27,728 nt of DNA. Source: a virus. Its lineage: Duplodnaviria > Caudoviricetes. Location of the stretch: positions 1 to 27,728 of the IMG/VR virus record IMGVR_UViG_3300024294_000046; one strand, 5' to 3'. The translations under genes and the position numbers were made by a program. Under the pieces are notes generated by a model, which had not been told where the DNA came from, searched no databases, and worked only from the letters and a program-made list of their open reading frames with translations. This document shows, piece by piece, positions 1 to 27,728 of this stretch (the stretch's first letter is position 1; each line of letters begins with the position of its first letter).

Positions 1-284
1 TCTGTTGAGATATCAGACATTCTTAAGAACTATGTTGAGGATAACTTTAACCACTTAACACCAAGACCATCACCTGATGAAGATAGACAAACAAATACAC
101 AATTGTATATTGTTAATTCAAATTATCTTGAAATGAAATCTGTTAAGATATTAGCAGGTGAGGAGTATAAGGTAAATGGAGCATTAACCATATTTGATGG
201 GTTTGATAGTATAGGAGAACCATCAGTATATGTGTCATCATGGTATTCATCATATCATGCTATGGATGCTAATTCTGAGGAGGT
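1..284. repeat. Terminal direct repeat, left copy (circularisation overlap)
   Basis: 1-284 aligns without gaps to 27445-27728, with 7 substitutions at positions 18, 90, 96, 114, 118, 131 and 223. Confidence 0.97.
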
Positions 285-3200
285 TTTAAGAGCATCAGGA
301 GACTTAAGTAATGTTCAGTTCAGTTCCAATCATTTAGATGTCTTAGAAAGGATTAATAAGGGTATGATGAATACTGCAGGATATGATGGTGGTAGTAATT
401 ATTATGAAACCTTAAGTGGTAATCAATACAACACCTTATATGTTAATGATAATATTAAGGAGTTATCACATAGACCTTTAAAGAGATTAAGGTTTGAGGG
501 TATACCACAGAGTGCTTCATTCTATGAGACCAACTATATTACATTATGGAATAAGAAAAGTGATAATAACAATCAAAACCCTGCTAACTATGATAGAGCA
601 ACCATTGGTAGAAACTTCTCTAATGATGATGAGGTTGTAGAACCATTTGGAAGGATTGAACCATATAATAATTATAGACAAAGAATACAAACCATAGGTT
701 ATGAATTTTATGACCCATCAGGTTTATTAGTTGATGAGGTAAGATACCAACCTAATAGTCCTGTATTTAACCAACCAATATATGACACATTTGGATTTGA
801 TTATGAAATTTATGGAGATGGTAGGTTTACAGGTCAAGGAGAAGGTGTTAGTAAATCTAATCAAAGAAAGATTGAGACAGGTTGGGAATATGTTAAATAC
901 AATACCTTTAAAGAAGGTAGTAGAGTTAATATAACTAATGATGCTTATGATGGAGATTTTACATATGGTGGTGAAAATATTATGTATAATGTAGCTGGAA
1001 GGTTTACTCCTGATGGAGTAAAATATATGGAAGGTGATAAGATATGTGATTATAGAGGACCAGCTGAGTTATTAACTTATAGGTATATTGCACAAAGTAA
1101 TGATGATAATTCAGTGTATAAGAATTGGGTAGGGTTTAATAACCTAAATTCATTTAAAGATATTGAGAAACTTACAACCCATAAGGAAAATGCTAATTCA
1201 CCAAACACTCAAGCATCAACATTCTCATGTTATGCAAAAGCTCAATATGATAATGTAGAAGGATTTCAAGGTAATATACCACCAATTGGTGGAACAGGTC
1301 AAGGTCAAGGTCCATTACTTAATACATATAGTGGTTCAGGTCAACAGGGAGCAAACCCTTATACACAAGTTTATACTCAAGCAGGTTTTTATAGATTTAC
1401 ATGGGAGTTCTTTGATATCCCTGATAGATTTGTATTAACATATGCAGCTCAAGGATTACCAACTGATGGTGATATAATCTATGATTCAGGGTATATGTCA
1501 GATACAGGGGTTTTTGAGTTTGATAATCCTAATGGTTTATGGTTAGGTATGTATATCTATAGAGAAAATGCAGGAACTGCATGGGAGTATGAAGTTAACA
1601 TATATGAAGACCCTGAATGGGACCCAAATCTTGTTATTGCTAATTTAGCACAGGGTAATAATTTTGCTATACTTCAAGATGATGAATATGATACAGGAAT
1701 AATTGTTGGTTTAGATTCAAACTTACCTGAAGAATATGACTTAACAACAACAAGATATAACTTTAACTTAGCACCATCATTAAAGGTTTATAACCTTGAT
1801 GAAAGTAGATTTGCTACCTATGAGGAGGTAAAGAGTTTAACAGGTAGAAGTCTTGAAGGTATAAATTATACAGGTGTTAATGGAAGAAGTGTTATTGAAG
1901 TATTAACTTCTAAGACTATTGGTCAGAATATTTCTATGGATAGTGGAGATGATTATGAACAACTATTAATGACATTCCAAATTAACCCTGTTGTTAATAC
2001 TGCTACTATGGATGAGTTTTTATTATTACCTGGTGTATATACAGGTATTGGTAGAGCTAGTAGTTTACCTGCCATTAGTAGTTCTAGAATTTACACAAAG
2101 GTATGGAGAATTATGAATGGTAATGACAAGTCCCTTAAGAATGCTAACCAAATGAAACTTAAGTTATATGATTTTGATAATAACTTTAACCTACTTAAAG
2201 AAGAGGTTGGTAATGCTGGTAAGTTCACCACAAACATCAATGGATGGGGTCCAAGTTCAAGTTTCCCTGCAGGTTTATTTCACACCACATTAACAGATAC
2301 ACAATATTTTACATATGGTGTAAATGGAAACTTATGGAATAAAGACACAGGAGAAGGATATGGTTATTTAGGTAATTACCAAAATCAACAAAAGGTTGGT
2401 AGAGGTAATATGAGAAACATACCTGCTCAACCAAATAGTGGTCATATTATTTTATCATCAGAGTATCAATCATATTATCAAGGAATGCCAGCATGGTATT
2501 TAAGTTATATGTTATCAAGGGAGACTGATACTTTAATAGGACCTAACCAAAGAATCTCAGGTGTTGTTGCTGATTCACCATCAGGTAAGATGTTTATTCA
2601 TGTTAGTATGATGGTATATGTAAAAGATAATCCTGAATTATCAACATATCCTAACTATACAAATCTATATATGGGATTTCCTGGTTTTACAGGTCAACCT
2701 TTAAGTCCTTTAAGAAGGAATGTGTATAGAGCAGAAGATAAAGGGAGATGGAAAAGAATGTATTGTATTCAAGAAGTTCCAAACACTGACCAAGATTCTG
2801 GTATATCTTTTCAGAGTAGAGTTGAGTTGTTGGTAGATACATATAGTAATACAGATTATCAAGTATGGCAAAGCAAAGATTTAATCTTTGGTGATGTAAG
2901 GGTTAGTTATTTATTTGGTGAAACAGAGAGTGATAGAGTAGAAGAATCATATAAGTTATATGACAGAAACTTAGTTCAGATAAATGGTAATCAAGAACCA
3001 CACTTAATTGAATCAGGTGATTTACTTAGAAATGAAGCACACTCATTATTTTGGTTGAATAAGTTTGGAACATGGGATGACTACAGATTTAGAGCAAGAA
3101 GTCTTAAGACCACAGAGGTTAAGAGAACTACAAGGTCTACAGGTTTAGATAAGTTAGGAACATTAAATGACACCTATGTAAGAGGTAAACAAGAGTTTGG

Positions 3201-3471
3201 TGATACTATCAACTATAGTTTACAGGCTACTGACATTTATGAGTTAACAACAGATTATATAAACCAAGAGGAGAGAGAATGGTTTGAGAATATCTTTACC
3301 TCACCAAAACATATGATGTATGATGAGTTAACTGATGCATTTATCAGGGTAAATATATTGAATAAAAAATACACAATTATAAATAAGAAGAACCAAAAAC
3401 TTTTCCAATTAAAGTTGGAGGTTCAAGTATCACCTGAGATTAGGACTTTACAAGTTTTAGGTGGTTATTAA
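1..3471 (+). CDS. Large virion tail protein (distal tail/baseplate-type), 3' part; true start at 27244 across the join, about 1223 aa in total
   Basis: Frame is open from base 1, so the TTG at 103 is not the real start. The C-terminal FWLNKFGTWDDYRF...LTTDYINQEEREWFENIFTSP motif resembles distal tail proteins I recall from Bacteroidota siphoviruses. Lies between tail completion genes and the tail tip gene. Confidence 0.65.
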   Translation, partial: SVEISDILKNYVEDNFNHLTPRPSPDEDRQTNTQLYIVNSNYLEMKSVKILAGEEYKVNGALTIFDGFDSIGEPSVYVSSWYSSYHAMDANSEEVLRASGDLSNVQFSSNHLDVLERINKGMMNTAGYDGGSNYYETLSGNQYNTLYVNDNIKELSHRPLKRLRFEGIPQSASFYETNYITLWNKKSDNNNQNPANYDRATIGRNFSNDDEVVEPFGRIEPYNNYRQRIQTIGYEFYDPSGLLVDEVRYQPNSPVFNQPIYDTFGFDYEIYGDGRFTGQGEGVSKSNQRKIETGWEYVKYNTFKEGSRVNITNDAYDGDFTYGGENIMYNVAGRFTPDGVKYMEGDKICDYRGPAELLTYRYIAQSNDDNSVYKNWVGFNNLNSFKDIEKLTTHKENANSPNTQASTFSCYAKAQYDNVEGFQGNIPPIGGTGQGQGPLLNTYSGSGQQGANPYTQVYTQAGFYRFTWEFFDIPDRFVLTYAAQGLPTDGDIIYDSGYMSDTGVFEFDNPNGLWLGMYIYRENAGTAWEYEVNIYEDPEWDPNLVIANLAQGNNFAILQDDEYDTGIIVGLDSNLPEEYDLTTTRYNFNLAPSLKVYNLDESRFATYEEVKSLTGRSLEGINYTGVNGRSVIEVLTSKTIGQNISMDSGDDYEQLLMTFQINPVVNTATMDEFLLLPGVYTGIGRASSLPAISSSRIYTKVWRIMNGNDKSLKNANQMKLKLYDFDNNFNLLKEEVGNAGKFTTNINGWGPSSSFPAGLFHTTLTDTQYFTYGVNGNLWNKDTGEGYGYLGNYQNQQKVGRGNMRNIPAQPNSGHIILSSEYQSYYQGMPAWYLSYMLSRETDTLIGPNQRISGVVADSPSGKMFIHVSMMVYVKDNPELSTYPNYTNLYMGFPGFTGQPLSPLRRNVYRAEDKGRWKRMYCIQEVPNTDQDSGISFQSRVELLVDTYSNTDYQVWQSKDLIFGDVRVSYLFGETESDRVEESYKLYDRNLVQINGNQEPHLIESGDLLRNEAHSLFWLNKFGTWDDYRFRARSLKTTEVKRTTRSTGLDKLGTLNDTYVRGKQEFGDTINYSLQATDIYELTTDYINQEEREWFENIFTSPKHMMYDELTDAFIRVNILNKKYTIINKKNQKLFQLKLEVQVSPEIRTLQVLGGY

Positions 3472-3482
3472 AATATAGATAT

Positions 3483-7360: not shown

Positions 7361-10276
7361 ATGGCTAAAACAATAGGTATTACTCTCAAAGTTGATGGTG
7401 TAGAACAATCCATCAAAAGTGTTAATGAATTGGAAGAAACAATTCAATCACTTAATGAGGAGTTAAAACAGGAAGATATAGGTTCAGCAAGGTTTAAGAA
7501 ACTTTCAGGAGAACTACAGAATGCAAGGTCTGAACTAAAAACATTTGAGAAGACTTTTGAAGGGTTAGAACCTCAACAGAAGGCTGAAGCCTTTGTTAAG
7601 TTAGGTGAGGGTATAGCAGGAGCCTTTGCAGTTGGAGCAGGAGCCTTGGCTTTGTTTGGTGCTGATTCAGAGAAATTAGCTGAAATACAAACTAAGGTTC
7701 AGGGAGCAATTGCTATCTCAATTGGGGTGAGACAATTAGCTGAAGCAAGACTACAAGGACAGATAGCCCTGAGGATTGCACAGGAGAAGGCCTACCAAGC
7801 AGTTCAAGCAATTACAACATTAGTGGTAGGAACTTCAACAGGAGCTCTTAAAGCCTTTAGAATTGCTTTAGCTGCTACAGGGATTGGTCTTATAATTATT
7901 GCATTGGGAGCATTGGTTGCTAATTGGGACAAACTTACAGGAGCCATATTTGGTAGTGTAAGTCAGTTAGATAAAGCAAAGAAGAAACTTGCTGAGGTTG
8001 GTGCTGAGACTAAATCATCAACCATCTTATTAGGTAAGTATAGAGATGTAGTATTAGACACTACAAGGTCAGAGGAAGAGAGACAGACTGCATTAGAAAG
8101 GTTGAAGGAGTTAGGTATAGAAACCAATGATATCACCTTAGACAATGAGGATAGTCTTAGAATGTTAAATGAGAGGGTTGAAGATAGTATTGTATTAGCA
8201 GTTCAGAAAGCTAGAGTGGATGCAGTATTAAACCTTATCAAAGAGAAGATTACTGATACAATCAAAAAGGAGAACCAAGAATTAGGTGAGAATGTCTCAT
8301 GGTATGAAACTCTATGGAATGGTATAAAATCAACAGGTAATCCAGCCTTCTTCCAATATTATCAAGCAATATCTGATGTTGAGAATAAGACTGAAGAATT
8401 GAATGAGTTGAATGAGGAACAGAATGACCTTATGGGGTTATTGAATACTGAGATGGAGAAACTATTCAAGATTGAGACAAAGGTATATACTCAGAAAAGA
8501 AAGACTGCTAAAGAGACTAAGAAAGGTAATACACAGAAAGACAAAGAGAAAAAACTTATTGATGAACTTATCAAATCATATGACAGGTATAACAGAGCTC
8601 TTGAGGTATTAGGTCAGACTACTGCTCCTGAGGTTGAGGTGTTAGAAAAGTTAAATGATAAATTAGACAAACAGAAACAAATATTAACAGGTATCTTAAG
8701 TCCATTGGAAGAATATACTAATTCATTGACAAAGGCTGAGGTTCCTTCAGATAGATTTGGATTTTACTTCTCAACATTAAGAGAAGAGTTAGAAGAAGGA
8801 TTTGAAAGTTTACCTGGTGATGGGTTTATAACATTTACTGAACAGGTATTAAAAGAAGCATCTGAAAAAGGATTTACAAAAGAAGCAACTGATGCACTTA
8901 CCAAATTAATCAAAAATGGTTATATCCAAGTATTTAACCTATTAGGTGGAGATGTTGAGTTAAGAAAATTGGTTTCTAAAGCATATGCAGACCTCTATGC
9001 TGACCCATATAACTTTGAATTACAGGAAGCTTATGAGGACTCTATATTGGTAGCCTTCAAAAAGATACAAGGTATTACAGGTGAGTTAACTAGTGAACAA
9101 CAGAGGGGTTATGAAGCATTTGAGAAAAACCTTAAGTCATTAATTAAAGCAACATCTGACATTGAAGATGAGATTGATGCAGTTTATGAAGAAGTATCAA
9201 AAGTTCAGGATAAGGTTAATCAAAACTTAGAAGAAGGTTCTAGAGAAAGATTAACAATAGTTGAAGATAACTATAGAACATTCTATGATACAATCAATGG
9301 GTTTGACCAAGAGTATACTAGTGACTATGAAAAGTCATTAAGAGAACAAAACTTAGCAGCCTTCAAGAAAATGAAGGAGGAGATTAAGATTGCTAATATT
9401 AGTCAAGATGAGAGGGAGAAACTTCTTAAGGAGTATGAGAAAATGTATATTCAGACTGAAGAAAATATTAGTGATAAGGTTAATCAGTCAGCTAAGGATA
9501 GATTTCAAGAACAGAGTGAAGGTCTAACTAATTTCTTAAACACTGCAGCACAGGTTGCTACAGACATAGCAAACTTAGTTAATGACCTTACCAACATTCA
9601 GTTAGATTATTTAGATGCTTTATTTGATAAGAGATTTGAGAAACTTGATGAGGAGTATCAGAATGACCTTACCAAAGCAGGTGATAATGTTAGAGCAAAA
9701 AACAGAATTGATAAGAAGTATCAAAAGGAGAGATTAGAATTAGAGAAGGAATATGAGGCTGAGAAGAAGAAGTTAAAAAAGAAGGCACTGATTGCTGACC
9801 TATTAGCAAACTCATTACAGATTATTGCACAGACTGCAATGAATGTAGTTAAGGTATTCCCTAATCCATTCTTAATGGCTCTTGCTGGTGTTATTGGAGC
9901 AGCTCAGTTAGGTATTGCAGTGGCTCAGTATAATGCAGCTAGGAAACTTAGAAGAGGTGGTATCTTAGATGGACCAAGACATGCTCAGGGTGGTATTATG
10001 ATGGGAGATGGTTCTGAAGCAGAAGGTGGAGAGATAGTCCTTACAAGGGGTGTTGCACAAAACAGACAAGCACTTGCTTTAGCTAACCAAGCAAATTTAT
10101 TAGGTGGAGGAGATAATCTTATTAGTCAGACAGGTAGGTTTGATAATGAAGCATTTGAAGATTCACAAACAGGAACAATAAACCCTATACCAATTATACA
10201 GACATATGTAGTTGCTGAGGAAGTTCAAAGAGAGAATGTCATAAGTAAAAGAATAGCTGATAGAAGTAAATTATAG
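7361..10276 (+). CDS. Tail tape measure protein
   Basis: 971 aa, helical/coiled-coil, with Ala/Gly-rich hydrophobic segments (ALAATGIGLIIIALGALVANWD) and a C-terminal GGILDGPRHAQGGI...EAEGGE motif typical of tape measure proteins. Confidence 0.88.
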   Translation: MAKTIGITLKVDGVEQSIKSVNELEETIQSLNEELKQEDIGSARFKKLSGELQNARSELKTFEKTFEGLEPQQKAEAFVKLGEGIAGAFAVGAGALALFGADSEKLAEIQTKVQGAIAISIGVRQLAEARLQGQIALRIAQEKAYQAVQAITTLVVGTSTGALKAFRIALAATGIGLIIIALGALVANWDKLTGAIFGSVSQLDKAKKKLAEVGAETKSSTILLGKYRDVVLDTTRSEEERQTALERLKELGIETNDITLDNEDSLRMLNERVEDSIVLAVQKARVDAVLNLIKEKITDTIKKENQELGENVSWYETLWNGIKSTGNPAFFQYYQAISDVENKTEELNELNEEQNDLMGLLNTEMEKLFKIETKVYTQKRKTAKETKKGNTQKDKEKKLIDELIKSYDRYNRALEVLGQTTAPEVEVLEKLNDKLDKQKQILTGILSPLEEYTNSLTKAEVPSDRFGFYFSTLREELEEGFESLPGDGFITFTEQVLKEASEKGFTKEATDALTKLIKNGYIQVFNLLGGDVELRKLVSKAYADLYADPYNFELQEAYEDSILVAFKKIQGITGELTSEQQRGYEAFEKNLKSLIKATSDIEDEIDAVYEEVSKVQDKVNQNLEEGSRERLTIVEDNYRTFYDTINGFDQEYTSDYEKSLREQNLAAFKKMKEEIKIANISQDEREKLLKEYEKMYIQTEENISDKVNQSAKDRFQEQSEGLTNFLNTAAQVATDIANLVNDLTNIQLDYLDALFDKRFEKLDEEYQNDLTKAGDNVRAKNRIDKKYQKERLELEKEYEAEKKKLKKKALIADLLANSLQIIAQTAMNVVKVFPNPFLMALAGVIGAAQLGIAVAQYNAARKLRRGGILDGPRHAQGGIMMGDGSEAEGGEIVLTRGVAQNRQALALANQANLLGGGDNLISQTGRFDNEAFEDSQTGTINPIPIIQTYVVAEEVQRENVISKRIADRSKL

Positions 10277-10280
10277 AATT

Positions 10281-11831
10281 ATGAAAAACCCAAAAATTAT
10301 AGAATTATTCATTGAGGATTTAGAGGATGAGGCAGGAATTGAGTTTATCTCAATTGTTTCAGACCCTGCAATCCAAAGAAATTTCTTAGCATTTAAGAAT
10401 GATAAGAAGGTAATGGATAAAAAAACACAATCAGAAATCATCAAACTTTTAGAAGAAGAGGAAATTGGTGAGAGTAAAGATATATTAAAGAAATCAAAAA
10501 TACTTAAGGATGTTGTTGTTGATTCACACCAAGAGTATTTGGATATAATGAAGAAGATGAACAATGAGTTTCTTAAGAGGTCTTACATTGATGGTAAGAC
10601 TGACTCAGATAGTTTCTTAGACTATGGAGCAGGAGATGAAAGGGTAAGGGTCAGATTTTATTATGAGGGTCCTACAGACTCTAAGAATAGAGATTTCTGT
10701 GGTTATATGATGAGACAACAATCTAACACATTGTTTAGATTTGAGGACATTATGTATATGACTGCTAATGAGGCTAATGATGAGTTTGGATATTATGATA
10801 TATTCCAAAACAAGGGGTCTTACAATTGTAGGCATATGTGGAAAAGGGTTGATTTCCAAGTAGTTAATGACAGAAAAGTTAATCCTAAAGTTCAGAACCC
10901 AAGTTCAGAAGCTGAGGTGGTTAACAAACCTGTTCAGAGGGTATCTAAAGAAGTTAAGGAGAACTTATCAACAGATGAGTTTAAACAATGGACAGGGTAT
11001 CCAATCACTGCTAGAGAGAATGCTAAGAAAGCAAGATTACTGAATGAATTAAAAACACCATCAGCAAAGTGTATGACCTTAACAGGTAGGAGAAGAGCAG
11101 GTGATATAGAGAAGGGTAAAGGTTTATCTGATAACATTATGAAGAGAACCTTCTCTTATTTGAGTAGAGCAAGGGAATACTACAATGAAAGAGAGTTGGT
11201 AGGTAGAGGTAGATTAACAGATGATGAACTAAAGAATATTTCATGTGGGACAATATCTTACTTAGGATGGGGTGGAGACCCTATGTTGAAGTGGGTAGGA
11301 AGAAGAATGAAAGATATTCAGTTATCAAGTGATGTTGAGATGAAGTCAATGAAGACTGAGTTCCAATCAATTGATGAGGATAAAAGAATAATCACAGGAT
11401 TAGCAATGGTTCCAAATGAGACCATATTCAGATATGACCCTAATAAGGATGAGGAGTTCTATGTATACTTTACCAAGAGAACAATCAGATTACTTATGGA
11501 GAAGTTTATGTTGGAAGCAAACAACAAGAATGTTGATTTGGAACATAATGGTATCAAGGTTGAAGCAGGTGTTGTAGAGAGTTGGATTATTGAAGGAGAA
11601 AGTGATAAAGCATATCAATTAGGATTTGATGAAGAGACTGCACCTTATGGTAGTTGGGTTGTGTCTATGAAGATATTAGATGATGAGTTATGGGAGATGG
11701 TAAAGAATGACCCTGATAACTTAAATGGTTTCTCTGTGGCAGGAAACTTTTTGTCTAAGGTGGATAGATACTCCAAAGATGAAATAATAATGAACCAAAT
11801 CAAAGAGATATTGGAACAACACAATAAGTAA
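10281..11831 (+). CDS. Head maturation protease (C-terminal XkdF-like serine protease domain) fused to extra domains
   Basis: C-terminal DEDKRIITGLAMVPN..IFR / DLEH / VVESWI / PYGSWVVSMK / LNGFSVAG motifs; directly upstream of scaffold and capsid genes. Confidence 0.8.
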   Translation: MKNPKIIELFIEDLEDEAGIEFISIVSDPAIQRNFLAFKNDKKVMDKKTQSEIIKLLEEEEIGESKDILKKSKILKDVVVDSHQEYLDIMKKMNNEFLKRSYIDGKTDSDSFLDYGAGDERVRVRFYYEGPTDSKNRDFCGYMMRQQSNTLFRFEDIMYMTANEANDEFGYYDIFQNKGSYNCRHMWKRVDFQVVNDRKVNPKVQNPSSEAEVVNKPVQRVSKEVKENLSTDEFKQWTGYPITARENAKKARLLNELKTPSAKCMTLTGRRRAGDIEKGKGLSDNIMKRTFSYLSRAREYYNERELVGRGRLTDDELKNISCGTISYLGWGGDPMLKWVGRRMKDIQLSSDVEMKSMKTEFQSIDEDKRIITGLAMVPNETIFRYDPNKDEEFYVYFTKRTIRLLMEKFMLEANNKNVDLEHNGIKVEAGVVESWIIEGESDKAYQLGFDEETAPYGSWVVSMKILDDELWEMVKNDPDNLNGFSVAGNFLSKVDRYSKDEIIMNQIKEILEQHNK

Positions 11832-12562: not shown

Positions 12563-13471
12563 ATGTCTTATATTGTATCAAGTTTAGGAAATTGGAAAGA
12601 TGAGTCAGGTGCTATAATCACTCAGGCAATCTTAGAAGGTCAAACTGCTAGCCTTTCACAAGTAGTAGCTGGTATCAAACATACCAAAACAATTAATGTA
12701 GCATCTTATGATGTTGCTCCATCAACTGCAGCATGTGGTTGGGTTAACTCAACAGGTTCTGATGTAGAATACACTCAAGTTGACTTAGTAGTAAACAGAG
12801 AAGAAGTTAAACAAGAACTATGTCCAAAGGACTTAGAAGATAAATACTTATCACAATACCTAAGAGCTGGTATTGCAGGTGATGAAGAAATCCCATTTGC
12901 TGATTCAATAGCATCAGGAGTAGCTGCTAAAGTGAAAAGATATGTTGAAGAAAAATTATGGACTGCTACAACTGCAGGAGGTGATGCATTCAATGGTTTT
13001 GGATACACAATTGATTCAGTTAACACTGCAGGTGTAAATGCAACTACAGGTTCTGTAGCAATCACTAACACTAATGGTTTAGAAGAAGTAGATAAGATGA
13101 TATTTGCTTTACCAGCTGATGCACAGGAACAAGAAATCTTAGTATTCATGTCTGTTGCTAACTTTGCTAAGTATAAAGCATCTTACAGAAATGCTAACTT
13201 ATTCATCACTCAAGGTGAGGAAATGAATGGTTCAGTATTAACTCATCCAGGTTTTGTCAATGTAAAAGTTGTTGGAACACCAGGTATATCAACTGACAGA
13301 GTTGTTGCAGGTCCATCTGCAGGATTCTATGTAGGTATGGATGGATTAGATGATATGGATGCAATCTCTATCTTCTATTCTCAAGATAATGATGTTGTGA
13401 GATTAAAGACTGGGTTTAAATACTCATCAGCAATTGTATTTGAGACTTTATTCTCATCTAACCAACTATAA
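12563..13471 (+). CDS. Major capsid protein
   Basis: 302 aa after the scaffold; motifs GIKHTKTIN, CGW, ELCPKDLE..Y and FYSQDNDVVR resemble Bacteroidota phage capsid proteins; strong A-rich start region; followed by a stem-loop. Confidence 0.82.
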   Translation: MSYIVSSLGNWKDESGAIITQAILEGQTASLSQVVAGIKHTKTINVASYDVAPSTAACGWVNSTGSDVEYTQVDLVVNREEVKQELCPKDLEDKYLSQYLRAGIAGDEEIPFADSIASGVAAKVKRYVEEKLWTATTAGGDAFNGFGYTIDSVNTAGVNATTGSVAITNTNGLEEVDKMIFALPADAQEQEILVFMSVANFAKYKASYRNANLFITQGEEMNGSVLTHPGFVNVKVVGTPGISTDRVVAGPSAGFYVGMDGLDDMDAISIFYSQDNDVVRLKTGFKYSSAIVFETLFSSNQL

Positions 13472-13481
13472 TAATAATATC

Positions 13482-13515
13482 TGTAGAGGGGTGGGTTAGT
13501 TCTCACCCCATTACA
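13482..13515 (+). other. Stem-loop after the capsid gene without a U-tract (possible mRNA stabiliser or weak terminator)
   Basis: GGGGTGGG (13488-13495) pairs with CTCACCCC (13502-13509), with outer TGTA/TACA pairing; no poly-T follows. Confidence 0.6.
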
Positions 13516-13549
13516 ACACAATAAATTAAAAAACTAAAAACACAATACT

Positions 13550-14104
13550 ATGGGATGTAATTCATATATCACTGGAGCACAGGGACTTAGTTGTAGAAAT
13601 TCTACAGGTGGAATTAAGAATATCTTTATTTTTGAAGATGGTGATACTTTATCAATCACTTCAGGAGCATCAGGTATTTCTGCTATATCATCTACAGACA
13701 CTACTGACTTATACCAATGGAAGCTTCCAAGAGCAACTAGTAACTTCCAAGAAGTTATTAATGCTTCAACAGAGAATGGTTCATTATTTTATGAAGCAAC
13801 ACTAACATTTTCATTATTAGGTCTTTCTCAAGAGAGACAAGATGAATTAAGATTATTAGCAGCAAATCCAGCAGTGAGATTAATCATTGAGGATAACTCA
13901 GGAAACTATTGGTTAATGGGTAAAGCTAATGGAGCAGATGTTCAGACTTCAACATTATCTTCAGGTTCAGCATTTGCTGACAAAGTAGGATATGAAGTTG
14001 TTATGTTAGCTCAAGAACCTTATGGGGTAGAGAGATTTGATGTTGCTGATGAAGCTGCATTTGAAGCTTTATTCTCAGGAACAATCACTTTAGTGAAAGC
14101 ATAA
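13550..14104 (+). CDS. Major tail tube protein
   Basis: 184 aa; C..STGGIKNIFI, ENGSLFYE and IIEDNSGNYWLMG..NG motifs of Bacteroidota phage tail tube proteins; co-transcribed with the capsid gene. Confidence 0.7.
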   Translation: MGCNSYITGAQGLSCRNSTGGIKNIFIFEDGDTLSITSGASGISAISSTDTTDLYQWKLPRATSNFQEVINASTENGSLFYEATLTFSLLGLSQERQDELRLLAANPAVRLIIEDNSGNYWLMGKANGADVQTSTLSSGSAFADKVGYEVVMLAQEPYGVERFDVADEAAFEALFSGTITLVKA

Positions 14105-16724: not shown

Positions 16725-17822
16725 ATGAAAGGAAAGGTATTTAGTTTTGGTTTAGTAGAAAATCCTAATAGCATTGAAAAAAGGGGTCAGAAATGGGTCT
16801 CATGGGGACAGGGTAATGATTATCCTGTATACCTTCAAGGGCTAGCACAGGATAGTGCTTTACATTCCTCAATCTTAAAATCAAAGTTAGATAACATTAT
16901 TGGTGAAGGTTTAAGAAGTAAATCTAATCCTGAGGTGTTAAGGTTTGCTAATAGTGATGGAGAGAGTTGGGATGATATAATGATGAAGATAACAAAGGAT
17001 TTTGTCCTTTATGGTGGTTTTGCTTTAAATGTGGTTCATACCAATAGTAGAGAGACCATTGAGGTATTCCATTTAGATTATTCATATGTAAGACCTGGTA
17101 AGAAGGATGAGGATGATAGAGTTAAGGAATATTACTATTCAACAAAATGGAACAACACAAAGAAGTATCCACCAAAAAGATATGAGTGTTTCTCAATGAT
17201 GTCTGAAGAGGATTCAACAATCTTTGCATATACACCATATGTATCAGGTAGAGAGTATTTCCCTATTCCTGACTACTCAGGAGGGATACCAGCAATTAAT
17301 TTAGGTATATCTATAGAGAAGTATCACAACTTTAATTTGAACTCAGGAATGAGTCCATCTCTATGGGTTCACCTTCCAACTGAATTGGAAACTGATGAGG
17401 AGTTAAATGACTTCTATAGAAACATTCAGGACAACTATTCAGGTATTGAGAATGCTGGTAAGTTCATTTTAACCACATCTGATGGTATGGACTTAAAACC
17501 TCAAATTGAAACCATTACAACCTCTGTAAATGATGATTACTATACATCAGTATATGAGTTGGTAAAGACAAATGTATTAGCAGCACACAGATTAACATCA
17601 GGACTTTTGATTGGTATTAAGGATAGTTCAGGTTTAGGTTCTAATAAAGATGAAATAATCACTGCTCAAACACACTTTTTAAACACCACAATCAAACCAT
17701 ACCAAGACCAAATTATATCTATTATAAAGAGGTTCTTAAGACTTAACTTAAATGGTTTAAACTTAGATTTGTATATTGAACAGAATAAACTATTTGATGA
17801 TGAGGGAGACCTAAATGTATAG
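16725..17822 (+). CDS. Portal protein
   Basis: 365 aa; WG..NDYP.YL, SALHSSIL.SK...I.GEG, DFVLYGGFALNV, YFPIPDY.G, G.ENAGKF and AAHRLTS..L.GI motifs of Bacteroidota phage portals. Confidence 0.82.
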   Translation: MKGKVFSFGLVENPNSIEKRGQKWVSWGQGNDYPVYLQGLAQDSALHSSILKSKLDNIIGEGLRSKSNPEVLRFANSDGESWDDIMMKITKDFVLYGGFALNVVHTNSRETIEVFHLDYSYVRPGKKDEDDRVKEYYYSTKWNNTKKYPPKRYECFSMMSEEDSTIFAYTPYVSGREYFPIPDYSGGIPAINLGISIEKYHNFNLNSGMSPSLWVHLPTELETDEELNDFYRNIQDNYSGIENAGKFILTTSDGMDLKPQIETITTSVNDDYYTSVYELVKTNVLAAHRLTSGLLIGIKDSSGLGSNKDEIITAQTHFLNTTIKPYQDQIISIIKRFLRLNLNGLNLDLYIEQNKLFDDEGDLNV

Positions 17823-19086: not shown

Positions 19087-19614
19087 ATGAAAAACAAAAA
19101 AGAAGAATTCATTCCATATAGAGATTATGGATTTAATCACACACTTAATTTGGTATTATCATTCATCAATATGTATGGAAATACCTATGCATCTAATAAA
19201 CACATATCAGAAAGGTTGAAGATTTCTATTTCAACAATCTCAAGAACATTAAAGAAACTTGAGGAGAGTAATTACATTAAAATATACAATCCAAATGGTA
19301 GAAGTAGGTTCATCAAATTGATTACCCAACCTAATCAAAATGAAGAGAACATAGTCAATATGACTAACATACCTAATCAAAATGAGGAGGTTAACCTAAT
19401 CAAAATGACTAACAATAAGAAAGAGAACAATAAAGTAAAAAAGAAAGTTTATAATAAAGCATATAAGAAAGCTGAAGAGGTAGTAGAAGAGATTTTTATG
19501 GAACCTATTAAAAAAGATGAATTAGATTTACATGATTTACAAAATAGACTTAGTGAGCCTAATGATTATATTGATGAACTTTTAAATAAAAAACTTTCTT
19601 CAACAATTGATTAA
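19087..19614 (+). CDS. Winged-HTH replication initiator (lambda O / DnaD-type architecture)
   Basis: N-terminal YASNKHISERLKISISTISRTLKKLEESNYI helix-turn-helix; central low-complexity linker encoded by iterons. Confidence 0.75.
   Translation: MKNKKEEFIPYRDYGFNHTLNLVLSFINMYGNTYASNKHISERLKISISTISRTLKKLEESNYIKIYNPNGRSRFIKLITQPNQNEENIVNMTNIPNQNEEVNLIKMTNNKKENNKVKKKVYNKAYKKAEEVVEEIFMEPIKKDELDLHDLQNRLSEPNDYIDELLNKKLSSTID
19329..19408. repeat. Four 15-bp iterons (putative replication origin)
   Basis: ACCTAATCAAAATGA at 19329, 19371 and 19394; variant ACATAGTCAATATGA at 19349; followed by an A-rich tract. Confidence 0.8.
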
Positions 19615-20361: not shown

Positions 20362-20407
20362 AAGAGAGTAATTTGAATTGTTGTTTCATTTTACTCTCTT
20401 TTTTTTT
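20362..20407 (+). terminator. Intrinsic terminator with a long loop
   Basis: AAGAGAGTAA (20362-20371) pairs with TTACTCTCTT (20391-20400); T-run continues to 20407. Confidence 0.8.
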
Positions 20408-20435
20408 GGCAGTATCAGAAAAAGTATTATCTTTG
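20405..20435 (+). promoter_or_regulatory. Bacteroidota sigmaA-type promoter TTTG-N19-TATCTTTG
   Basis: Matches the established -33 TTTG / -7 TAnnTTTG consensus; duplicated at 20689. Confidence 0.8.
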
Positions 20436-20688: not shown

Positions 20689-20720
20689 TTTGGCAGTCTA
20701 ATATATTCACCTTATCTTTG
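20689..20720 (+). promoter_or_regulatory. Bacteroidota sigmaA-type promoter TTTG-N20-TATCTTTG
   Basis: Shares TTTGGCAGT...TTATCTTTGTATCTCAC...TTAAAAAC with the 20405 promoter. Confidence 0.8.
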
Positions 20721-20832: not shown

Positions 20833-21081
20833 ATGACAGACACTTATTCAAGAATGACAGACATCACAATGGAAGAATTACTAATAGACCTTATGTCTGA
20901 TTACAGAGACTATCTCCAAGATGATGGGGTAAAGGATGAAATCCTTGAGAAGTTCTATGACAACCCTTGTTTCACACTCTCAGGTATGACTAAGGAACAT
21001 GTATACAACTTTCACAACAGACTATCAAAAACATATGATGTGGTTGCTGAGTTGGAAGTAGAATTTGACTTACCATTTTAA
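20833..21081 (+). CDS. Hypothetical early protein (82 aa; ATG 20833 preferred over TTG 20803)
   Basis: ATG lies 4 nt after the mini-ORF stop; acidic C-terminus ending DLPF. Confidence 0.7.
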   Translation: MTDTYSRMTDITMEELLIDLMSDYRDYLQDDGVKDEILEKFYDNPCFTLSGMTKEHVYNFHNRLSKTYDVVAELEVEFDLPF

Positions 21082-21100
21082 TCAAAAAAATAACAAACAT

Positions 21101-21400
21101 ATGAAAAGATTTGCTACACTAAGAAATGTTCCATGTATGAGAAAAATCAATAACCCTGGTTTAAAAGTGGATGAACTATATAACTTTAAAAATTGGGGAT
21201 TGATTAACTATCATTTTAATTATCATAGGTATTTCCTACCATCAAATTGTGAATATACAACAACAAACCCTGTATATACCAATGAGGGTAATTTTGAGTT
21301 TGAGTTATGGGATGAGGGTAAACATATAGGAAACTATATTATAGAAAAAAATGATTTAAACCTTATTATAGATTATGAGGTTATAAAAGAAAATATATAA
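21101..21400 (+). CDS. Hypothetical early protein (99 aa; ATG 21101 preferred over TTG 21065)
   Basis: A-rich leader AAAAAAATAACAAACAT before the ATG. Confidence 0.7.
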   Translation: MKRFATLRNVPCMRKINNPGLKVDELYNFKNWGLINYHFNYHRYFLPSNCEYTTTNPVYTNEGNFEFELWDEGKHIGNYIIEKNDLNLIIDYEVIKENI

Positions 21401-21423
21401 AGAGGTTTGTTTTAAGTGGAAAT

Positions 21424-21452
21424 AGGAGGACAGAAATGTTCTCCTTTTTTTT
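21424..21452 (+). terminator. Intrinsic terminator
   Basis: AGGAGGACA, GAAA tetraloop, TGTTCTCCT, then a T-run. Confidence 0.88.
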
Positions 21453-21461
21453 GTCATATAC

Positions 21462-21490
21462 TTGACACTTACAATCCCAATGTGTATACT
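21462..21490 (+). promoter_or_regulatory. Sigma70-consensus-like promoter TTGACA-N17-TATACT
   Basis: Perfect -35, 5/6 -10, 17-nt spacer, immediately after a terminator. Confidence 0.6.
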
Positions 21491-21496
21491 ATTATT

Positions 21497-21580
21497 ATTA
21501 GACTTGTTTCTGCCATTACAAGTTTGAATAGTTTAAATTGTTATACAAAGAAGAGGAGACCACACATCTCCTCTTTTTTT
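21497..21580 (+). ncRNA. Putative ~84-nt small RNA
   Basis: Own promoter, 10-bp 5' hairpin (21498-21527), U-rich linker and terminator; no ATG on the + strand inside the unit. Confidence 0.55.
21551..21580 (+). terminator. Intrinsic terminator
   Basis: AAGAGGAGA, loop CCACACA, TCTCCTCTT, then a T-run. Confidence 0.88.
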
Positions 21581-21587
21581 ATGCTTA

Positions 21588-21616
21588 TTGATTAAATAAA
21601 CTAACTTTTGTATTAT
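21588..21616 (+). promoter_or_regulatory. Sigma70-like promoter TTGATT-N17-TATTAT
   Basis: 17-nt spacer, just after a terminator and 20 nt upstream of the ATG at 21637; would drive the nuclease operon. Confidence 0.45.
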
Positions 21617-21636
21617 TAGTAGATACTTATAGATAT

Positions 21637-21828
21637 ATGATATTTGATAAACACCAGTGGAGGTCCTTCTCAATGTGGATAAGGGAACCAAAAAACCAAG
21701 AAGAGATTAAAGTGTTCCAAGAACATTTGAATACATTATACCCTGAAATCAAGGAAGACCCTGATTGGATATTGAAGAAGTATAGGAATAAATATAATTG
21801 GTTGAGTAATTATCAACCTAAAAAGTAA
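21637..21828 (+). CDS. Hypothetical protein
   Basis: 63 aa Trp-rich ORF ending 3 nt before the nuclease gene. Confidence 0.65.
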   Translation: MIFDKHQWRSFSMWIREPKNQEEIKVFQEHLNTLYPEIKEDPDWILKKYRNKYNWLSNYQPKK

Positions 21829-21831
21829 TAT

Positions 21832-22356
21832 ATGGATTGGAATACTAGAAAAACTATAGGAGATAAAGTAGAAGGTGATATTGCAAGATTGTATGTGGAT
21901 TATGAACCTCAATTTCAAATTAAGTATGATAGTGTCAGTGGTATGAATAAGTGGAACCCTGATTATTATATGATGGATAAATGGATTAAATTAGGTCATG
22001 ATGAAACCAAAGCACCTGATTTCTACTTTAAAAAATTAGACATCTATGCTGATGCTAAGAATTCAATTCAGATTATTAAGAAATCAAACATAGACCATTA
22101 CTATGAGATGGGTCATTTAGGTAATAAGAGAACCTTTCTAATGGTTAAACAGGAGAACAGAGGGTTTTGTATGGTTGATGTAAAAGAACTTCAGGAGGAG
22201 GTATTAAATAATGTTATATGGAACCCACCAATAGATGATTTTATAAAAGTGGATGGTAAATCAATGGGTGCTATAACAGAGGAATACATTGATGTGATGA
22301 GAGATTACCCACAAATATTAGAAATGTGTATACCATTTAATGAACTATTTACATAG
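21832..22356 (+). CDS. PD-(D/E)XK superfamily (restriction endonuclease-like) nuclease
   Basis: N-terminal helix GDKVE..IA, then APDFYFKKLDIYADAK, i.e. PD-x10-D-A-K catalytic spacing. Confidence 0.6.
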   Translation: MDWNTRKTIGDKVEGDIARLYVDYEPQFQIKYDSVSGMNKWNPDYYMMDKWIKLGHDETKAPDFYFKKLDIYADAKNSIQIIKKSNIDHYYEMGHLGNKRTFLMVKQENRGFCMVDVKELQEEVLNNVIWNPPIDDFIKVDGKSMGAITEEYIDVMRDYPQILEMCIPFNELFT

Positions 22357-22369
22357 TCAACAGGTAATT

Positions 22370-22377
22370 TATATTTA
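22370..22377 (+). promoter_or_regulatory. TATATTTA putative late promoter element (would give a leaderless transcript)
   Basis: Recurring octamer only 3 nt before the ATG at 22381. Confidence 0.4.
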
Positions 22378-22380
22378 ACT

Positions 22381-22734
22381 ATGACAGAAGCAGTTTTTAA
22401 TGAAATGATTAGGAAGATGATTACTCTGAATAAGACTAACATGAACTATAATCCATTTAAACATCAAATCAGGTCAGGTATAATGATGACAAACATTATC
22501 AATGATTTAAATGATGTGTTAAATTTTGTCTTAATTACATACAATATCTCACCAGATGATAAGAGGTATCTAGATGTTTCAGAAAGAGTATTTGGTATTG
22601 TAAGGGAACAAATAAAAATAGAGGTCTCAGAAGAGAACTATGAGTTTGCATACATTCTATCAAATGCATATAAAAAGTGGATAGAGCAGGTCAATGATTA
22701 CATTGATGAAACATGGGAAGGTTATGACAAATAA
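22381..22734 (+). CDS. Hypothetical protein with a UVR-like helical motif
   Basis: 117 aa; EVSEENYEFAYIL resembles the UvrB/C coiled-coil E.YE.A motif. Confidence 0.55.
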   Translation: MTEAVFNEMIRKMITLNKTNMNYNPFKHQIRSGIMMTNIINDLNDVLNFVLITYNISPDDKRYLDVSERVFGIVREQIKIEVSEENYEFAYILSNAYKKWIEQVNDYIDETWEGYDK

Positions 22735-23236
22735 TGTTAACAAATGGATATCTAATAACTACAAAGATATCTCACAGATGTCTAAGAATATAACAAAGGG
22801 TCATAATGACTCAGATGAGTTATTACATAATTGTTTGGAACAACTAATGTCAAAATCAGAACAATTGGAAAATCTAAAAGACAAGGAACTCAAATGGTTC
22901 TTCTCAAGGATACTTTATACCAATTGGAATAGTAAGACCTCACCATATCATTATCAGTTCAGGAAACACTTCCAAAATACCTCAGAGTTATTGTTTGACC
23001 CTAGTGTTGATAATCCAAATGAGGAGATAGATAATAAGAAGATTGTAGAACAACAATTAATAGAAATAGACTTGGTGTTAAGAGACCTTAGATGGTTTGA
23101 CAGAGCTCTATTCAATAAATACTATTATGAAGGATATTCTTATCAGAGATTAGCAAACAAAACAGGAATATCTTATCATACCATAGCTTCAACCATAAGA
23201 AGGGTGAAGAGAATAATAAAACAAAAGTTATGTTAA
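22724..23236 (+). CDS. ECF-like RNA polymerase sigma factor (start probably 22724)
   Basis: Region-2-like NDSDELLHNCLEQL...KWFFSRILYTN and region-4 HTH LRWFDRALFNKYYYEGYSYQRLANKTGISYHTIASTIRRVKRIIK. Confidence 0.75.
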   Translation: MTNNVNKWISNNYKDISQMSKNITKGHNDSDELLHNCLEQLMSKSEQLENLKDKELKWFFSRILYTNWNSKTSPYHYQFRKHFQNTSELLFDPSVDNPNEEIDNKKIVEQQLIEIDLVLRDLRWFDRALFNKYYYEGYSYQRLANKTGISYHTIASTIRRVKRIIKQKLC

Positions 23237-23304
23237 ACATAATACTATTAACCCTATTGGTATTATCAGGGGTTAGAATAATCACAGAAATAAAAACAGA
23301 ATAA
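23230..23304 (+). CDS. 24-aa hydrophobic mini-protein missing from the ORF track
   Basis: MLNIILLTLLVLSGVRIITEIKTE*; overlaps the sigma stop and ends 2 nt before the next ATG. Confidence 0.5.
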   Translation: MLNIILLTLLVLSGVRIITEIKTE

Positions 23305-23306
23305 CT

Positions 23307-24006: not shown

Positions 24007-24035
24007 ATACAAAGTTAAAAAGATAATTACAAGTT

Positions 24036-25361
24036 ATGGTTGTAAATCCTGAACTATTACCTAAACAAAAAATAGCTTTTAGAAAGTTAATTGATGACAC
24101 TACAACAGAGGTTCTCTATGGTGGTGGAGTTGGTGGTGGTAAATCTTATTTGGGTTGTATGTGGGTGATTATATCCTGTCTTCAATATGAGGGTATTAGA
24201 ATGTTGGTAGGAAGGAGTAAGTTAACACAATTAAAACTTACAACACTTAAGACCATGTTTGAGGTATTTGTAAATCTACAATTGAAGGAGGGAACACATT
24301 GGACATTCAATGGACAAACAAATGTATTCACATTCTATAATGGTTCAGAGATTATCTTAAAGGATTTATTCTTATACCCATCAGACCCTGAGTATGATTC
24401 CTTAGGTTCTTTAGAATTGACAGGAGGATTTGTGGATGAGGCATCACAGGTATCCTTCAAAGCATTTCAGGTAATCAAATCAAGATTTAGATATAAGATA
24501 AAAGAGTATGACATAACTCCAAAGATATTACTAACAACCAACCCATCACAGAATTGGTTGTATGAGTATTTCTATAAACCTGATAGGGATGGAGATTTGG
24601 AGGAGTATAAAACCTTTATACAATCCTTACCAACAGATAACCCACATTTACCTGAGAGTTATTTAAAGGAGTTAAAGAAACTACCTGAGGAAAGTAGGAA
24701 GAGGTTGTTGGAGGGTAATTGGGATTATGATAGTTCAATAGACCAGTTGTTCTCATACAATGATATCAACATGTGTTTCAATAATGATATGGAAGATGGT
24801 AGTTATTACATTACAGGGGATATAGCATCCTATGGTGATGACAGGTCTGTCTTATGTGTATGGAATGGTCTTAACCTCATCTCTATGGACATATTAACCC
24901 ATCAGTCTATACCTAACATAGTTGAGAAAATAAAGTCCCTTAAAACCTCTTATAATGTCCCATTAAAGAATATCATAGTGGATGCTGATGGATTGGGAAT
25001 TGGTGTTGTGGATTTGTTGAGGTGTAAAGGATTTAAGAATGGTTCAAGACCATTGAAGGAAGGGAACTACAACAATCTTAAATCACAATGTTATTTCTTA
25101 TTGTCAGAATATGTTAAGGATGGTAAGATTAATTTTGGTGATATGAAGATGAGTTTACAGGAACAATTATCAAAGGAGTTAATTGCTCATAGAATAAAGG
25201 ATGTGGATAAGGATGGTAAGAACCAAGTTATTCCAAAAGACCAAGTTAAGAAGAACATTGGTAAGTCTCCTGATATCTCAGATACCATAATGTTTAGGAT
25301 GTGGTATGAACTACAACCTAAGGGTAGGTATAAGATAATGTCAGGTGGAGGAGCCAGATAA
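24036..25361 (+). CDS. terL: Terminase large subunit
   Basis: Walker A GGGVGGGKS, Walker B FVDEA, coupling motif TTNP, RNaseH-like nuclease residues GDIA / VDADG / SPDISD. Confidence 0.96.
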   Translation: MVVNPELLPKQKIAFRKLIDDTTTEVLYGGGVGGGKSYLGCMWVIISCLQYEGIRMLVGRSKLTQLKLTTLKTMFEVFVNLQLKEGTHWTFNGQTNVFTFYNGSEIILKDLFLYPSDPEYDSLGSLELTGGFVDEASQVSFKAFQVIKSRFRYKIKEYDITPKILLTTNPSQNWLYEYFYKPDRDGDLEEYKTFIQSLPTDNPHLPESYLKELKKLPEESRKRLLEGNWDYDSSIDQLFSYNDINMCFNNDMEDGSYYITGDIASYGDDRSVLCVWNGLNLISMDILTHQSIPNIVEKIKSLKTSYNVPLKNIIVDADGLGIGVVDLLRCKGFKNGSRPLKEGNYNNLKSQCYFLLSEYVKDGKINFGDMKMSLQEQLSKELIAHRIKDVDKDGKNQVIPKDQVKKNIGKSPDISDTIMFRMWYELQPKGRYKIMSGGGAR

Positions 25362-25377
25362 TCAAAAATAAATTAAT

Positions 25378-25385
25378 TATATTTA
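25378..25385 (+). promoter_or_regulatory. TATATTTA putative late promoter element upstream of the tail chaperone
   Basis: Recurring octamer 5 nt before the ATG; TAATCAAAA upstream at the same spacing as at 7339. Confidence 0.5.
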
Positions 25386-25390
25386 AGAAT

Positions 25391-26217: not shown

Positions 26218-26660
26218 TGAATAAGACTTACAAAAACATTGTTGAGGAATTTAAGAGTTTAGCAACAAGACATAAGATGGTAAACTCATTCAACTCAGGA
26301 GATATCTATGATATTAACTTTGATGATGAGAATAAGAAACCAATATACCCATATGTCCATTTGGTTCCACAACCATCACAGATGTTGGAGAATGAATTGT
26401 TGTTTACCTTCAACCTTATTGTAATGGATTTGGTTGATACAGAGTTTGCTAATCATTATGATATTCAATCAGACACCATCAGGATTGCTCAGGACATTAT
26501 ATATGAGTTTAAGGGACAGAACCAAGTGGAACAGATATTAGACCCCACACCAATCAGTGTATTCACTGAGAGGTTTAATGATGAGGTATCAGGTTGTAAT
26601 GCTACAATCACCTTATCAGTTCCTCAGGAAATAAGTATATGTGAAAATCCATTTGAGTAA
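26217..26660 (+). CDS. Tail terminator-like protein
   Basis: 147 aa acidic alpha/beta protein with YPYVHL and FTERFNDEVSG motifs; coupled to the next gene by TAATG. Confidence 0.55.
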   Translation: MNKTYKNIVEEFKSLATRHKMVNSFNSGDIYDINFDDENKKPIYPYVHLVPQPSQMLENELLFTFNLIVMDLVDTEFANHYDIQSDTIRIAQDIIYEFKGQNQVEQILDPTPISVFTERFNDEVSGCNATITLSVPQEISICENPFE

Positions 26661-27241
26661 TGGGATTAGAAAGGTTATCAGGTTTTGGATTTGAGGTAGA
26701 CAACTCTCAATTAATTAAAGCACTGAATGACTTTGCTCAGACTATTGTTGTTCCTTATATGAGGGACCTTACCAAAAAGAAGGCTTATGACAAGGGAGGG
26801 ATATACCAATCTATTAGGTCAGAGGTTGTTCAAGGTGGAGGTAATACAGGAATAGGAGCTGGTGATTATGCCATCAATATAGTGATAGATGAACCTGGTT
26901 CTAACTACATAGATTTTGTTGAGAAGGGTGTAAGAGGTTCAGAGTCAGGAGCTAAAGCTCCATCATCACCTTATAGGTTTGGAACAGGTTCAGGACCAAG
27001 AGGTGGATTAACAAGAAGTATTACAGAGTGGTCCCAAAGAAAAGGTTTATACAAATATAGATTTGGTATCATTAAAAACATATATAAGTATGGATTAAGA
27101 GCAAGACCAATATTGGACCCTACTTTTGATTATGCACAGAAACTAATAGAGACATCATATGAACAGAGACTTGAACAGGGGTTTGCTGATGATATGAATA
27201 AGATAATAGACAATCTAATAACAGAAATAAATAATAACTAA
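26660..27241 (+). CDS. Neck/tail completion protein (HK97 gp10-like)
   Basis: DKGGIYQSI, Y.DFVEKG and GLRARPIL.P motifs resemble the DTG.L..SI / YA..VE.G / G..ARPF pattern. Confidence 0.6.
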   Translation: MGLERLSGFGFEVDNSQLIKALNDFAQTIVVPYMRDLTKKKAYDKGGIYQSIRSEVVQGGGNTGIGAGDYAINIVIDEPGSNYIDFVEKGVRGSESGAKAPSSPYRFGTGSGPRGGLTRSITEWSQRKGLYKYRFGIIKNIYKYGLRARPILDPTFDYAQKLIETSYEQRLEQGFADDMNKIIDNLITEINNN

Positions 27242-27243
27242 TT

Positions 27244-27728
27244 ATGATAACAACTAATTATGGAACAGATGGTAGAGATGTGTATAAGAAACCATCCTTT
27301 ATCCAACCAGCATATAGTATAAATGGAGCCACAACTCTATCAGATAAAACTGCAGAACCTAACCATAGGTTCTTATTTGATATATACATTAATGATGAAA
27401 AGGTTGCAAGGGTTAAGTCTTTAGCATCTTACCTCAACTATGCATCTGTTGAGATATCAGATATTCTTAAGAACTATGTTGAGGATAACTTTAACCACTT
27501 AACACCAAGACCATCACCTGATGAAGATAGACAGACAAACACACAATTGTATATTGTAAATACAAATTATCTTGTAATGAAATCTGTTAAGATATTAGCA
27601 GGTGAGGAGTATAAGGTAAATGGAGCATTAACCATATTTGATGGGTTTGATAGTATAGGAGAACCAGCAGTATATGTGTCATCATGGTATTCATCATATC
27701 ATGCTATGGATGCTAATTCTGAGGAGGT
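27244..27728 (+). CDS. 5' part of the large tail protein that continues at 1-3471
   Basis: ATG 27244 (MITTNYGTDGRDVYKKP...) is open to the window end; 67 codons precede the repeat, in frame with base 1. Confidence 0.9.
   Translation, partial: MITTNYGTDGRDVYKKPSFIQPAYSINGATTLSDKTAEPNHRFLFDIYINDEKVARVKSLASYLNYASVEISDILKNYVEDNFNHLTPRPSPDEDRQTNTQLYIVNTNYLVMKSVKILAGEEYKVNGALTIFDGFDSIGEPAVYVSSWYSSYHAMDANSEE
27445..27728. repeat. Terminal direct repeat, right copy
   Basis: Matches 1-284 except for 7 substitutions. Confidence 0.97.

Follow-up and report, generated by a model that had tools for sequence, protein, structure and literature searches.

The stretch of DNA considered here, record IMGVR_UViG_3300024294_000046 of IMG/VR (Duplodnaviria; Caudoviricetes), belongs to an uncultured phage of seawater and raises the question of why a phage genome should contain no CG dinucleotide at all. 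The analysed stretch, called the window below, covers positions 1 to 27,728 of that record (27,728 nucleotides). A first-pass annotation made from the sequence alone had described it as devoid of CG, with several hundred CGs expected at 30-33% GC, and the computed counts agree with both statements: 0 CGs were observed against 712 expected from base composition at a GC content of 32.7%. We showed that the absence of CG is clade-wide and actively maintained, and that CG was lost repeatedly and independently in other Bacteroidota phage lineages. The explanation that we favour, at a probability of about 0.48, is that a defence of the host targets phage DNA at unmethylated CG.

The loss was found in every frame and context. 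At codon positions 1-2, 2-3 and 3-1, CG occurs 0 times against 128, 241 and 263 expected, respectively, and in intergenic DNA 0 times against about 26 expected. Arginine is encoded by AGA or AGG in 316 of 316 codons, as had been noticed before, and the number of C|G codon junctions is 0 against 250 ± 11 in a shuffle preserving the proteins and the codon usage, so the earlier view that the loss is frame-independent and not a codon bias holds. A terminator-like stem of G-runs and C-runs without CG, also described at first sight, is seen in intergenic DNA at 13488..13509 (+ strand). Since C and G spaced 1 to 11 bases apart occur at 0.78-1.12 of expectation, the depletion is limited to adjacent CG. 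ACGA, the commonest CG context of the sister clade, is at zero in the window as well. The excess of TG plus CA amounts to 698, compared with the 712 missing CGs, and across 117 loci TG climbs as CG drops (slope -0.42, r -0.67). The test of TG/CA excess proposed in the first-pass annotation came out positive: the excess matches the deficit, so that methylation-driven decay has to be reckoned with. The match does not separate decay from selection, however, since silent escape, too, most often goes by C-to-T.

The window is a whole circular phage genome of about 27.4 kb (1..27444), since its ends overlap by 284 bases; the terminal overlap (27445..27728, + strand) matches the window start with 7 differences, none of them CG-creating. 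An assembly artefact is excluded as the cause of the zero, because the stretch is present in 20 of the 24 seawater runs listed (5 possibly its source), CG-creating variants number 0 among 40 of 117 variants, and relatives from independent assemblies are likewise CG-free.

The related phages, which the first-pass annotation had proposed to count, were divided by clade. CG was zero in 8 of 8 clade loci (terminase identity 77-100%), with a clade total of 0 against 1,269 expected in 48,524 non-redundant bases at a DNA identity of 77-90%, while the sister clade (terminase identity 67-68%) keeps CG at 0.34-0.66 of expectation. Among 212 other family loci (those of at least 4 kb, some redundant) the median CG ratio was 0.78, with 15 loci below 0.2, 5 below 0.1 and 0 at zero. 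Over the family tree the ratio ranges from 0.03 to 1.57, and the low loci stand in several separate branches, indicating separate collapses. No cultured CG-free relative was found among eight cultured phage records (CG 0.25-0.94). The cultured Cellulophaga phage phi4:1 (L505, record 1-36015), has CG at 0.25 in all contexts over 36 kb and CCGG at 0; its annotations include a uracil-DNA glycosylase, a macro-domain protein, a PARP and two methylases, possibly a repair kit against a DNA-damaging defence.

The zero is maintained against silent change. Between the window and the clade relative L159, silent T-to-C changes number 0 at the 430 sites followed by G and 45 at the 687 followed by another base; silent A-to-G changes number 0 at the 319 sites preceded by C and 46 at the 665 preceded by another base. 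Pooled, CG-creating silent sites had changed in 0 of 749 cases, compared with about 7% elsewhere. L161 likewise shows no CG-creating silent change at the 138 and 106 sites of the two kinds, the rates elsewhere being 13% and 22%. At free sites of the window itself, third-position C before G occurs in 0 of 1,249 cases and third-position G after C in 0 of 898, the values elsewhere being 0.20-0.43, and we estimate from these two zeros that mutation by itself could account for them only if its rate were raised about 300-fold or more.

A further dinucleotide, GC, is also purged. The first-pass annotation had called GC common; it stands at only 0.55 of expectation. At free sites it is cut about tenfold in each of the nine contexts, the counts being 9 of 347 and 9 of 232 (baselines 33% and 37%). 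The 385 GCs left comprise 342 in alanine codons, 37 in other coding DNA and 6 in intergenic DNA, and the longest GC-free gap is 437 bases. GG/CC is not reduced, whereas both alternating C/G steps (CG and GC) are. Alanine makes up 2.2% of the clade terminases against 4.6% of 100 distant terminases. The capsid/tail region (12563..14104) has a normal GC level because it keeps alanine at about 10%. In the clade terminases, alanines conserved in distant terminases were seen to be replaced, including by valine in GGxxGGGKS (Walker A region, 24117-24150) and also near the C-terminus.

The sister clade and the loci L096 and L120 show the same free-site purge of GC though they keep CG. In the wider clade, GC purged at free sites with CG retained was observed in L096, L120, L138 and L163-L165, so that a pressure specific to GC exists independently. 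GC loss without CG loss occurs in L096 and L120, and CG loss without GC loss in the L014 clade and in a prophage of genome G271 (described below); since these losses fall in different lineages, the two pressures are separable. The GC loss looks older than the CG loss, because the CG-keeping sister clade and L096/L120 already show it. The window also lacks several ordinary restriction sites, an avoidance that the first-pass annotation did not mention: GATC, GTAC, ACNGT, GTNAC and GGCC occur 0, 0, 0, 3 and 1 times against 84, 76, 78, 82 and 16 expected, respectively. GATC and GTAC are also at zero in the sister L165, which lacks the candidate nuclease discussed below, and CCGG and GCGC are missing from the sisters. 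Further sites appear partially avoided in the window, with CTGG/CCAG reaching 0.36 of its Markov expectation and GANTC roughly half.

A marine Bacteroidota host is likely, as had been predicted, judging from the terminase, which shares 47% identity with its counterparts in Cellulophaga phage phi10:1 and Flavobacterium phage 11b, and from the promoter motif TTTG-N19/20-TAnnTTTG, which we take to be tied to Bacteroidota. The motif was found on the + strand at 20405..20435 (N19) and 20689..20720 (N20), and the leaders upstream of the window genes are A-rich. A CG-free genome was not found among 401 Flavobacteriales, in which the lowest AACGAA/AAGCAA ratios were about 0.19 and some small genomes were moderately CG-poor; a host-wide mutational bias, which the first-pass annotation had named as capable of overturning its reading, was not encountered in this sample. 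BLAST of 19.4 kb of the window against the same 401 genomes gave only weak matches in 61 genomes, and the sole perfect match (27 bases) was rejected as a host link, being AT-rich and outside any repeat array. The terminase profile gave 0 matches in 157 genomes of the family of G271. C5 methylases were present in 135 of the 401 genomes and 80 loci were read; three candidate methylases from this partial survey were compared with solved structures and were nearer to HhaI or DNMT1.

While the C5 methylases of Flavobacteriales genomes were being read, a 47-kb prophage was encountered in G271 (G271:C1:3568400-3615500; L411, L407, L408), with a CG ratio of about 0.08 in the core genes against 0.6-0.9 in the host. 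In its 29.4-kb core, CCGG stands at 0.87 (43 sites) and other CG at 0.05 (p about 1e-36). A few of its genes are at the host CG level, and it encodes a C5 methylase of 522 amino acids (P0141). A related prophage in G432 (G432:C1:908000-954900; L544, L534, L535) is mosaic, with some modules CG-poor (0.06-0.3), others normal, and CCGG kept, and related prophages in G236 and G256 have normal CG. Among seven genes common to both CG-poor prophages and missing from the CG-normal relatives, none was nuclease-, methylase- or deaminase-like by eye. If CCGG is methylated in the G271 and G432 prophages, the agent punishes unmethylated CG. P0141 was considered as a CG methylase and rejected: 79 other viral loci with homologs of 44-53% identity are mostly at a CG ratio of about 1, and phi4:1 carries a homolog yet lacks CCGG. 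Just upstream of the G432 prophage (901300-906200), genes like those of a phosphorothioation (Dnd) cluster were seen by eye. In a separate subclade (L019, L021, L022 and L025), CG is about 0.25 and CCGG is at twice expectation.

Under the favoured explanation, some Bacteroidota hosts would carry a defence that damages or cuts incoming DNA at unmethylated CG, and the clade would have purged every CG. Another, older pressure would likely act at GC and remove nearly all GC not needed for alanine. The cost per site would drive CG to exactly zero and GC to the alanine floor; CG can reach zero and GC cannot because no amino acid needs CG, whereas alanine needs GC. Arginine can be encoded by AGA or AGG, and each C-ending codon has a T-ending synonym. 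The agent would be host-encoded, would act on DNA and would be blocked by cytosine methylation, and the host could be spared if the agent were switched on at infection or were transiently present alongside a CG methylase. This explanation is supported by the rejection of silent CG-creating changes, the clade-wide zero, the several separate CG collapses and the 401 Flavobacteriales genomes keeping CG, and the loss of CG with CCGG kept in the G271 and G432 prophages fits it. As the agent, a nuclease that cuts at CG would fit, and so would a CpG deaminase sensitive to methylation; neither was found, and no search for such deaminases in hosts was made. Bacterial CpG-specific double-stranded DNA (dsDNA) deaminases, and deaminases blocked by modified cytosine, exist according to the accessible part of 10.1101/2023.06.29.547047. 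They resemble the putative agent in the needed dsDNA specificity, and would yield C-to-T change plus selection; they differ in that the same part of that source holds in vitro assays only and describes no anti-phage role or Bacteroidota link. The broader proposal that Bacteroidota possess anti-phage systems reading two-base words, with separate systems for unmethylated CG and for GC, is put forward tentatively, with the odds somewhat against it.

Several observations weigh against a defence acting on unmethylated CG. Neither a host nor a CG-specific enzyme turned up in the Flavobacteriales genomes searched, and the survival of a host carrying thousands of CGs under such an agent is assumed. 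The argument from CCGG is weaker than it first appeared and holds only if CCGG is methylated: a P0141 homolog was not found in the fetched stretch of the G432 prophage, and host DNA of the G271 family already favours CCGG. In G271 a Vsr repair gene also lies next to a C5 methylase on the chromosome, and repair could account for the sparing of CCGG in both prophages; the CTGG deficit that repair predicts is, however, not seen in the G271 prophage (0.87). The CCGG excess in the L019 clade arises because total loss of CTGG/CCAG forces CCGG: in L019 plus L025, CTGG/CCAG is 0 against 89 expected, and sister loci show the reverse (CCGG 0, CTGG 1.57), so this clade was not counted as another methylation-protected case. 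The leftover CG in near-free lineages is highest in arginine codons (G271 prophage, L254, L011 and the L014 clade), at 0.19 against 0.07 and 0.04 in the G271 prophage and 0.35 against 0.05 and 0.04 in L254. These arginine leftovers and the TG/CA match are also predicted by decay, and a tenfold loss of GC is within the range of methyl-cytosine decay.

A gene of the phage itself also deserves attention. The open reading frame at 21832..22356 (+ strand) encodes a clade-restricted protein with a predicted PD-(D/E)XK nuclease fold (predicted local distance difference test 70.9, predicted template modelling score 0.70). The best structural match of the model is the Holliday junction resolvase Hjc (Z 8.5, root-mean-square deviation 3.5, 113 aligned), and a PD...DAK motif with invariant G10, E14, P62, D63 and K76 is present, so the model has both the fold and the catalytic residues by which PD-(D/E)XK nucleases are defined. 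The likeness to the resolvases Hjc, RecU and D212 lies in this predicted fold (Z 8.5-6.4) and the catalytic motif; the differences are that the protein is only 9-14% identical to them, belongs to an orphan family and is swapped between close relatives. The family had 2 matches among 1.84 billion representatives, with no Pfam match and no family locus found in the viral contigs. A nuclease-like gene was found in 3 of 3 CG-free genomes with the region visible, compared with 0 of 9 CG-keeping near relatives with a gene at the nuclease slot. The L159 version is 33% identical, and L160 has no such frame and instead another, barely alignable nuclease-like gene one slot upstream. The variable early region (window 20833-22734; L159:345-1852; L160:903-1514) was seen to hold three different nuclease-like genes in three close relatives, and in L159 also an unrelated gene of 198 amino acids with a signal-peptide-like start. 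Resolvase-like nucleases near the sigma gene occur in CG-keeping relatives as well (P12024S gp32; L019, L013 and L049 by eye).

Other explanations were weighed on the same evidence. One of them, which we regard as unlikely, holds that a host methylase of the M.SssI/M.MpeI type marks the phage, that decay of methyl-cytosine erodes CG (and, with a GC methylase, GC), and that methylation-dependent restriction elsewhere removes the last sites. It would explain why the TG/CA excess equals the CG deficit, why CG lingers in arginine codons of other lineages and, through Vsr repair, why CCGG could be spared; the conserved alanines have become valine 4, threonine 2, serine 4, glycine 1 and cysteine 1 times in 28 cells. 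5-Methylcytosine at CG is the main de novo motif of a sea-ice methylome in the accessible part of PMC12570018, and the accessible part of PMC12707154 shows that enzymes cutting methylated CG are known (PsuGI). Decay alone would need the roughly 300-fold rate estimated above and should spare CGN at essential arginines, yet CG is found in 0 of 316 arginine codons and at 0 of 2,147 free sites. No methylase was found among 32 scanned phage proteins and no strongly CG-poor genome among the 401 sampled, the G271 prophage shows no CTGG deficit, and the three methylases compared were structurally nearer to HhaI or DNMT1. It appears improbable that the phage must avoid CG because its own predicted nuclease (21832-22356) would cut host or competitor DNA at CG. 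Such a role would account for the exact zero, and the predicted fold with its invariant residues and the near confinement of the family to the CG-free clade speak for it. That distribution represents one phylogenetic event only, the versions are highly divergent or missing as in optional or mobile genes, and the nearest structure is a junction resolvase of a kind that CG-keeping relatives also carry near the sigma gene. GATC and GTAC are zero in the nuclease-free L165 too, and neither the GC loss in the sisters nor the prophage cases would be explained.

The suggestion of the first-pass annotation that several CG-containing restriction systems are the cause did not hold up when the 617 sites in Biopython's copy of REBASE were applied. 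In four relatives, the 167 CG-containing sites among them miss 28 of 241, 24 of 286, 45 of 422 and 36 of 381 CGs (8-12%), and a single methylation-dependent enzyme accounts for more than half of those covered. ACGA, the commonest sister context, is at zero too. That many ordinary 4-6 base systems with an internal CG sum to a total ban is accordingly very doubtful, even though the window avoids GATC, GTAC, ACNGT, GTNAC and GGCC, the sisters lack CCGG and GCGC, and such avoidance is typical of non-temperate phages in the part of PMC6286503 available. About as doubtful is a target in phage RNA (a CG-reading RNase or an RNA-modifying toxin) or a small molecule binding CG/GC steps. Both words are palindromic, so that strand tests do not separate RNA from DNA, both steps are down while GG/CC is not, and DNA-binding drugs that prefer CG and GC exist. 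The intergenic DNA is CG-free as well, CG and GC have been lost independently of each other in different lineages, and the sparing of CCGG in the prophages points to a mark on DNA. Scarcely credible is a general host mutational bias, a codon bias or an artefact of assembly: although CG is moderately scarce in some small Flavobacteriales genomes, the zero extends to all frames, 0 of 401 genomes are CG-free and many independent assemblies agree.

A host defence acting on unmethylated CG can be compared with known systems. The absence of GATC, GTAC and ACNGT is plain restriction-site avoidance. In the part available of the work on non-temperate phages (Rusinov et al. 2018, PMC6286503), short palindromes are fully removed by silent changes, and the window resembles such phages also in that no integrase or methylase was found. 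CG does not belong to this class, because no catalogued site for unmodified CG exists (no enzyme for unmodified CG alone was found among the 617 sites) and the 167 CG-containing sites leave 8-12%. The window further differs in that its word is only two bases long with about 700 expected, and that its other word, GC, is purged to the alanine floor with a change in protein composition. In the case of M.MpeI, the depleted genome itself encodes the methylase, and only part of the CG is lost. The depletion of CpG by this CG methylase of Mycoplasma penetrans, as cited in PMC11282364 (available part), is like the window in the frame-independent CG loss with TG/CA excess; the window differs in being a phage without a methylase, in that sampled genomes of the host group keep CG, and in being at zero even in arginine codons. 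The CpG suppression of vertebrate viruses under ZAP and TLR9, treated in the same part of PMC11282364, is similar in that selection comes from a host factor recognising CG as foreign, but these sensors are vertebrate-only. That part of PMC11282364 also deems it unlikely that phage CpG levels result from bacterial defence, a view that the window would contradict under the host-defence explanation.

A description of a CG-free phage was not found in the literature searched, which did not cover subscription journals and supplementary tables; none is described in the accessible parts of PMC12707154, PMC10333322, PMC12570018 and 10.1101/2025.05.15.652987, and in the last of these, a phage survey, the lowest per-phylum CpG count in the part available is 89. 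An exact zero maintained genus-wide and a GC purge that reshapes proteins point to some as yet undescribed force acting on phage DNA. If a host enzyme is responsible, it would represent a novel type of defence and, being methylation-sensitive, a useful tool. If systems reading two-base words are real, they would parallel in bacteria the CpG sensing of vertebrates, with enough force to rid a phage genus of all CG and half its terminase alanines, and might yield enzymes that are specific for CG and blocked by methylation. Handles for tests are provided by phi4:1 with its cultured host, the G271 and G432 prophages in sequenced genomes and the one candidate nuclease.

The remaining features of the window are those of a tailed phage, with coding on a single strand throughout. 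On this strand (+) lie a tape-measure-like protein (9.3% alanine) and a head maturation protease (7361..11831), the likely major capsid and major tail proteins (12563..14104, assigned by position and of no named family), the portal protein (16725..17822), a replication initiator-like winged-helix protein (19087..19614), a sigma-70 region 4 protein (22721..23236) and the terminase large subunit used as the clade marker (24036..25361; 7 alanines in 441 amino acids). No integrase was found among the 32 scanned proteins, many small open reading frames having no family, and no tRNA gene was found in the window. In the sister L165 (3289-7520), the early genes, including a GNAT-like gene by eye, lie on the strand opposite to the late genes; in the window both groups are co-oriented.

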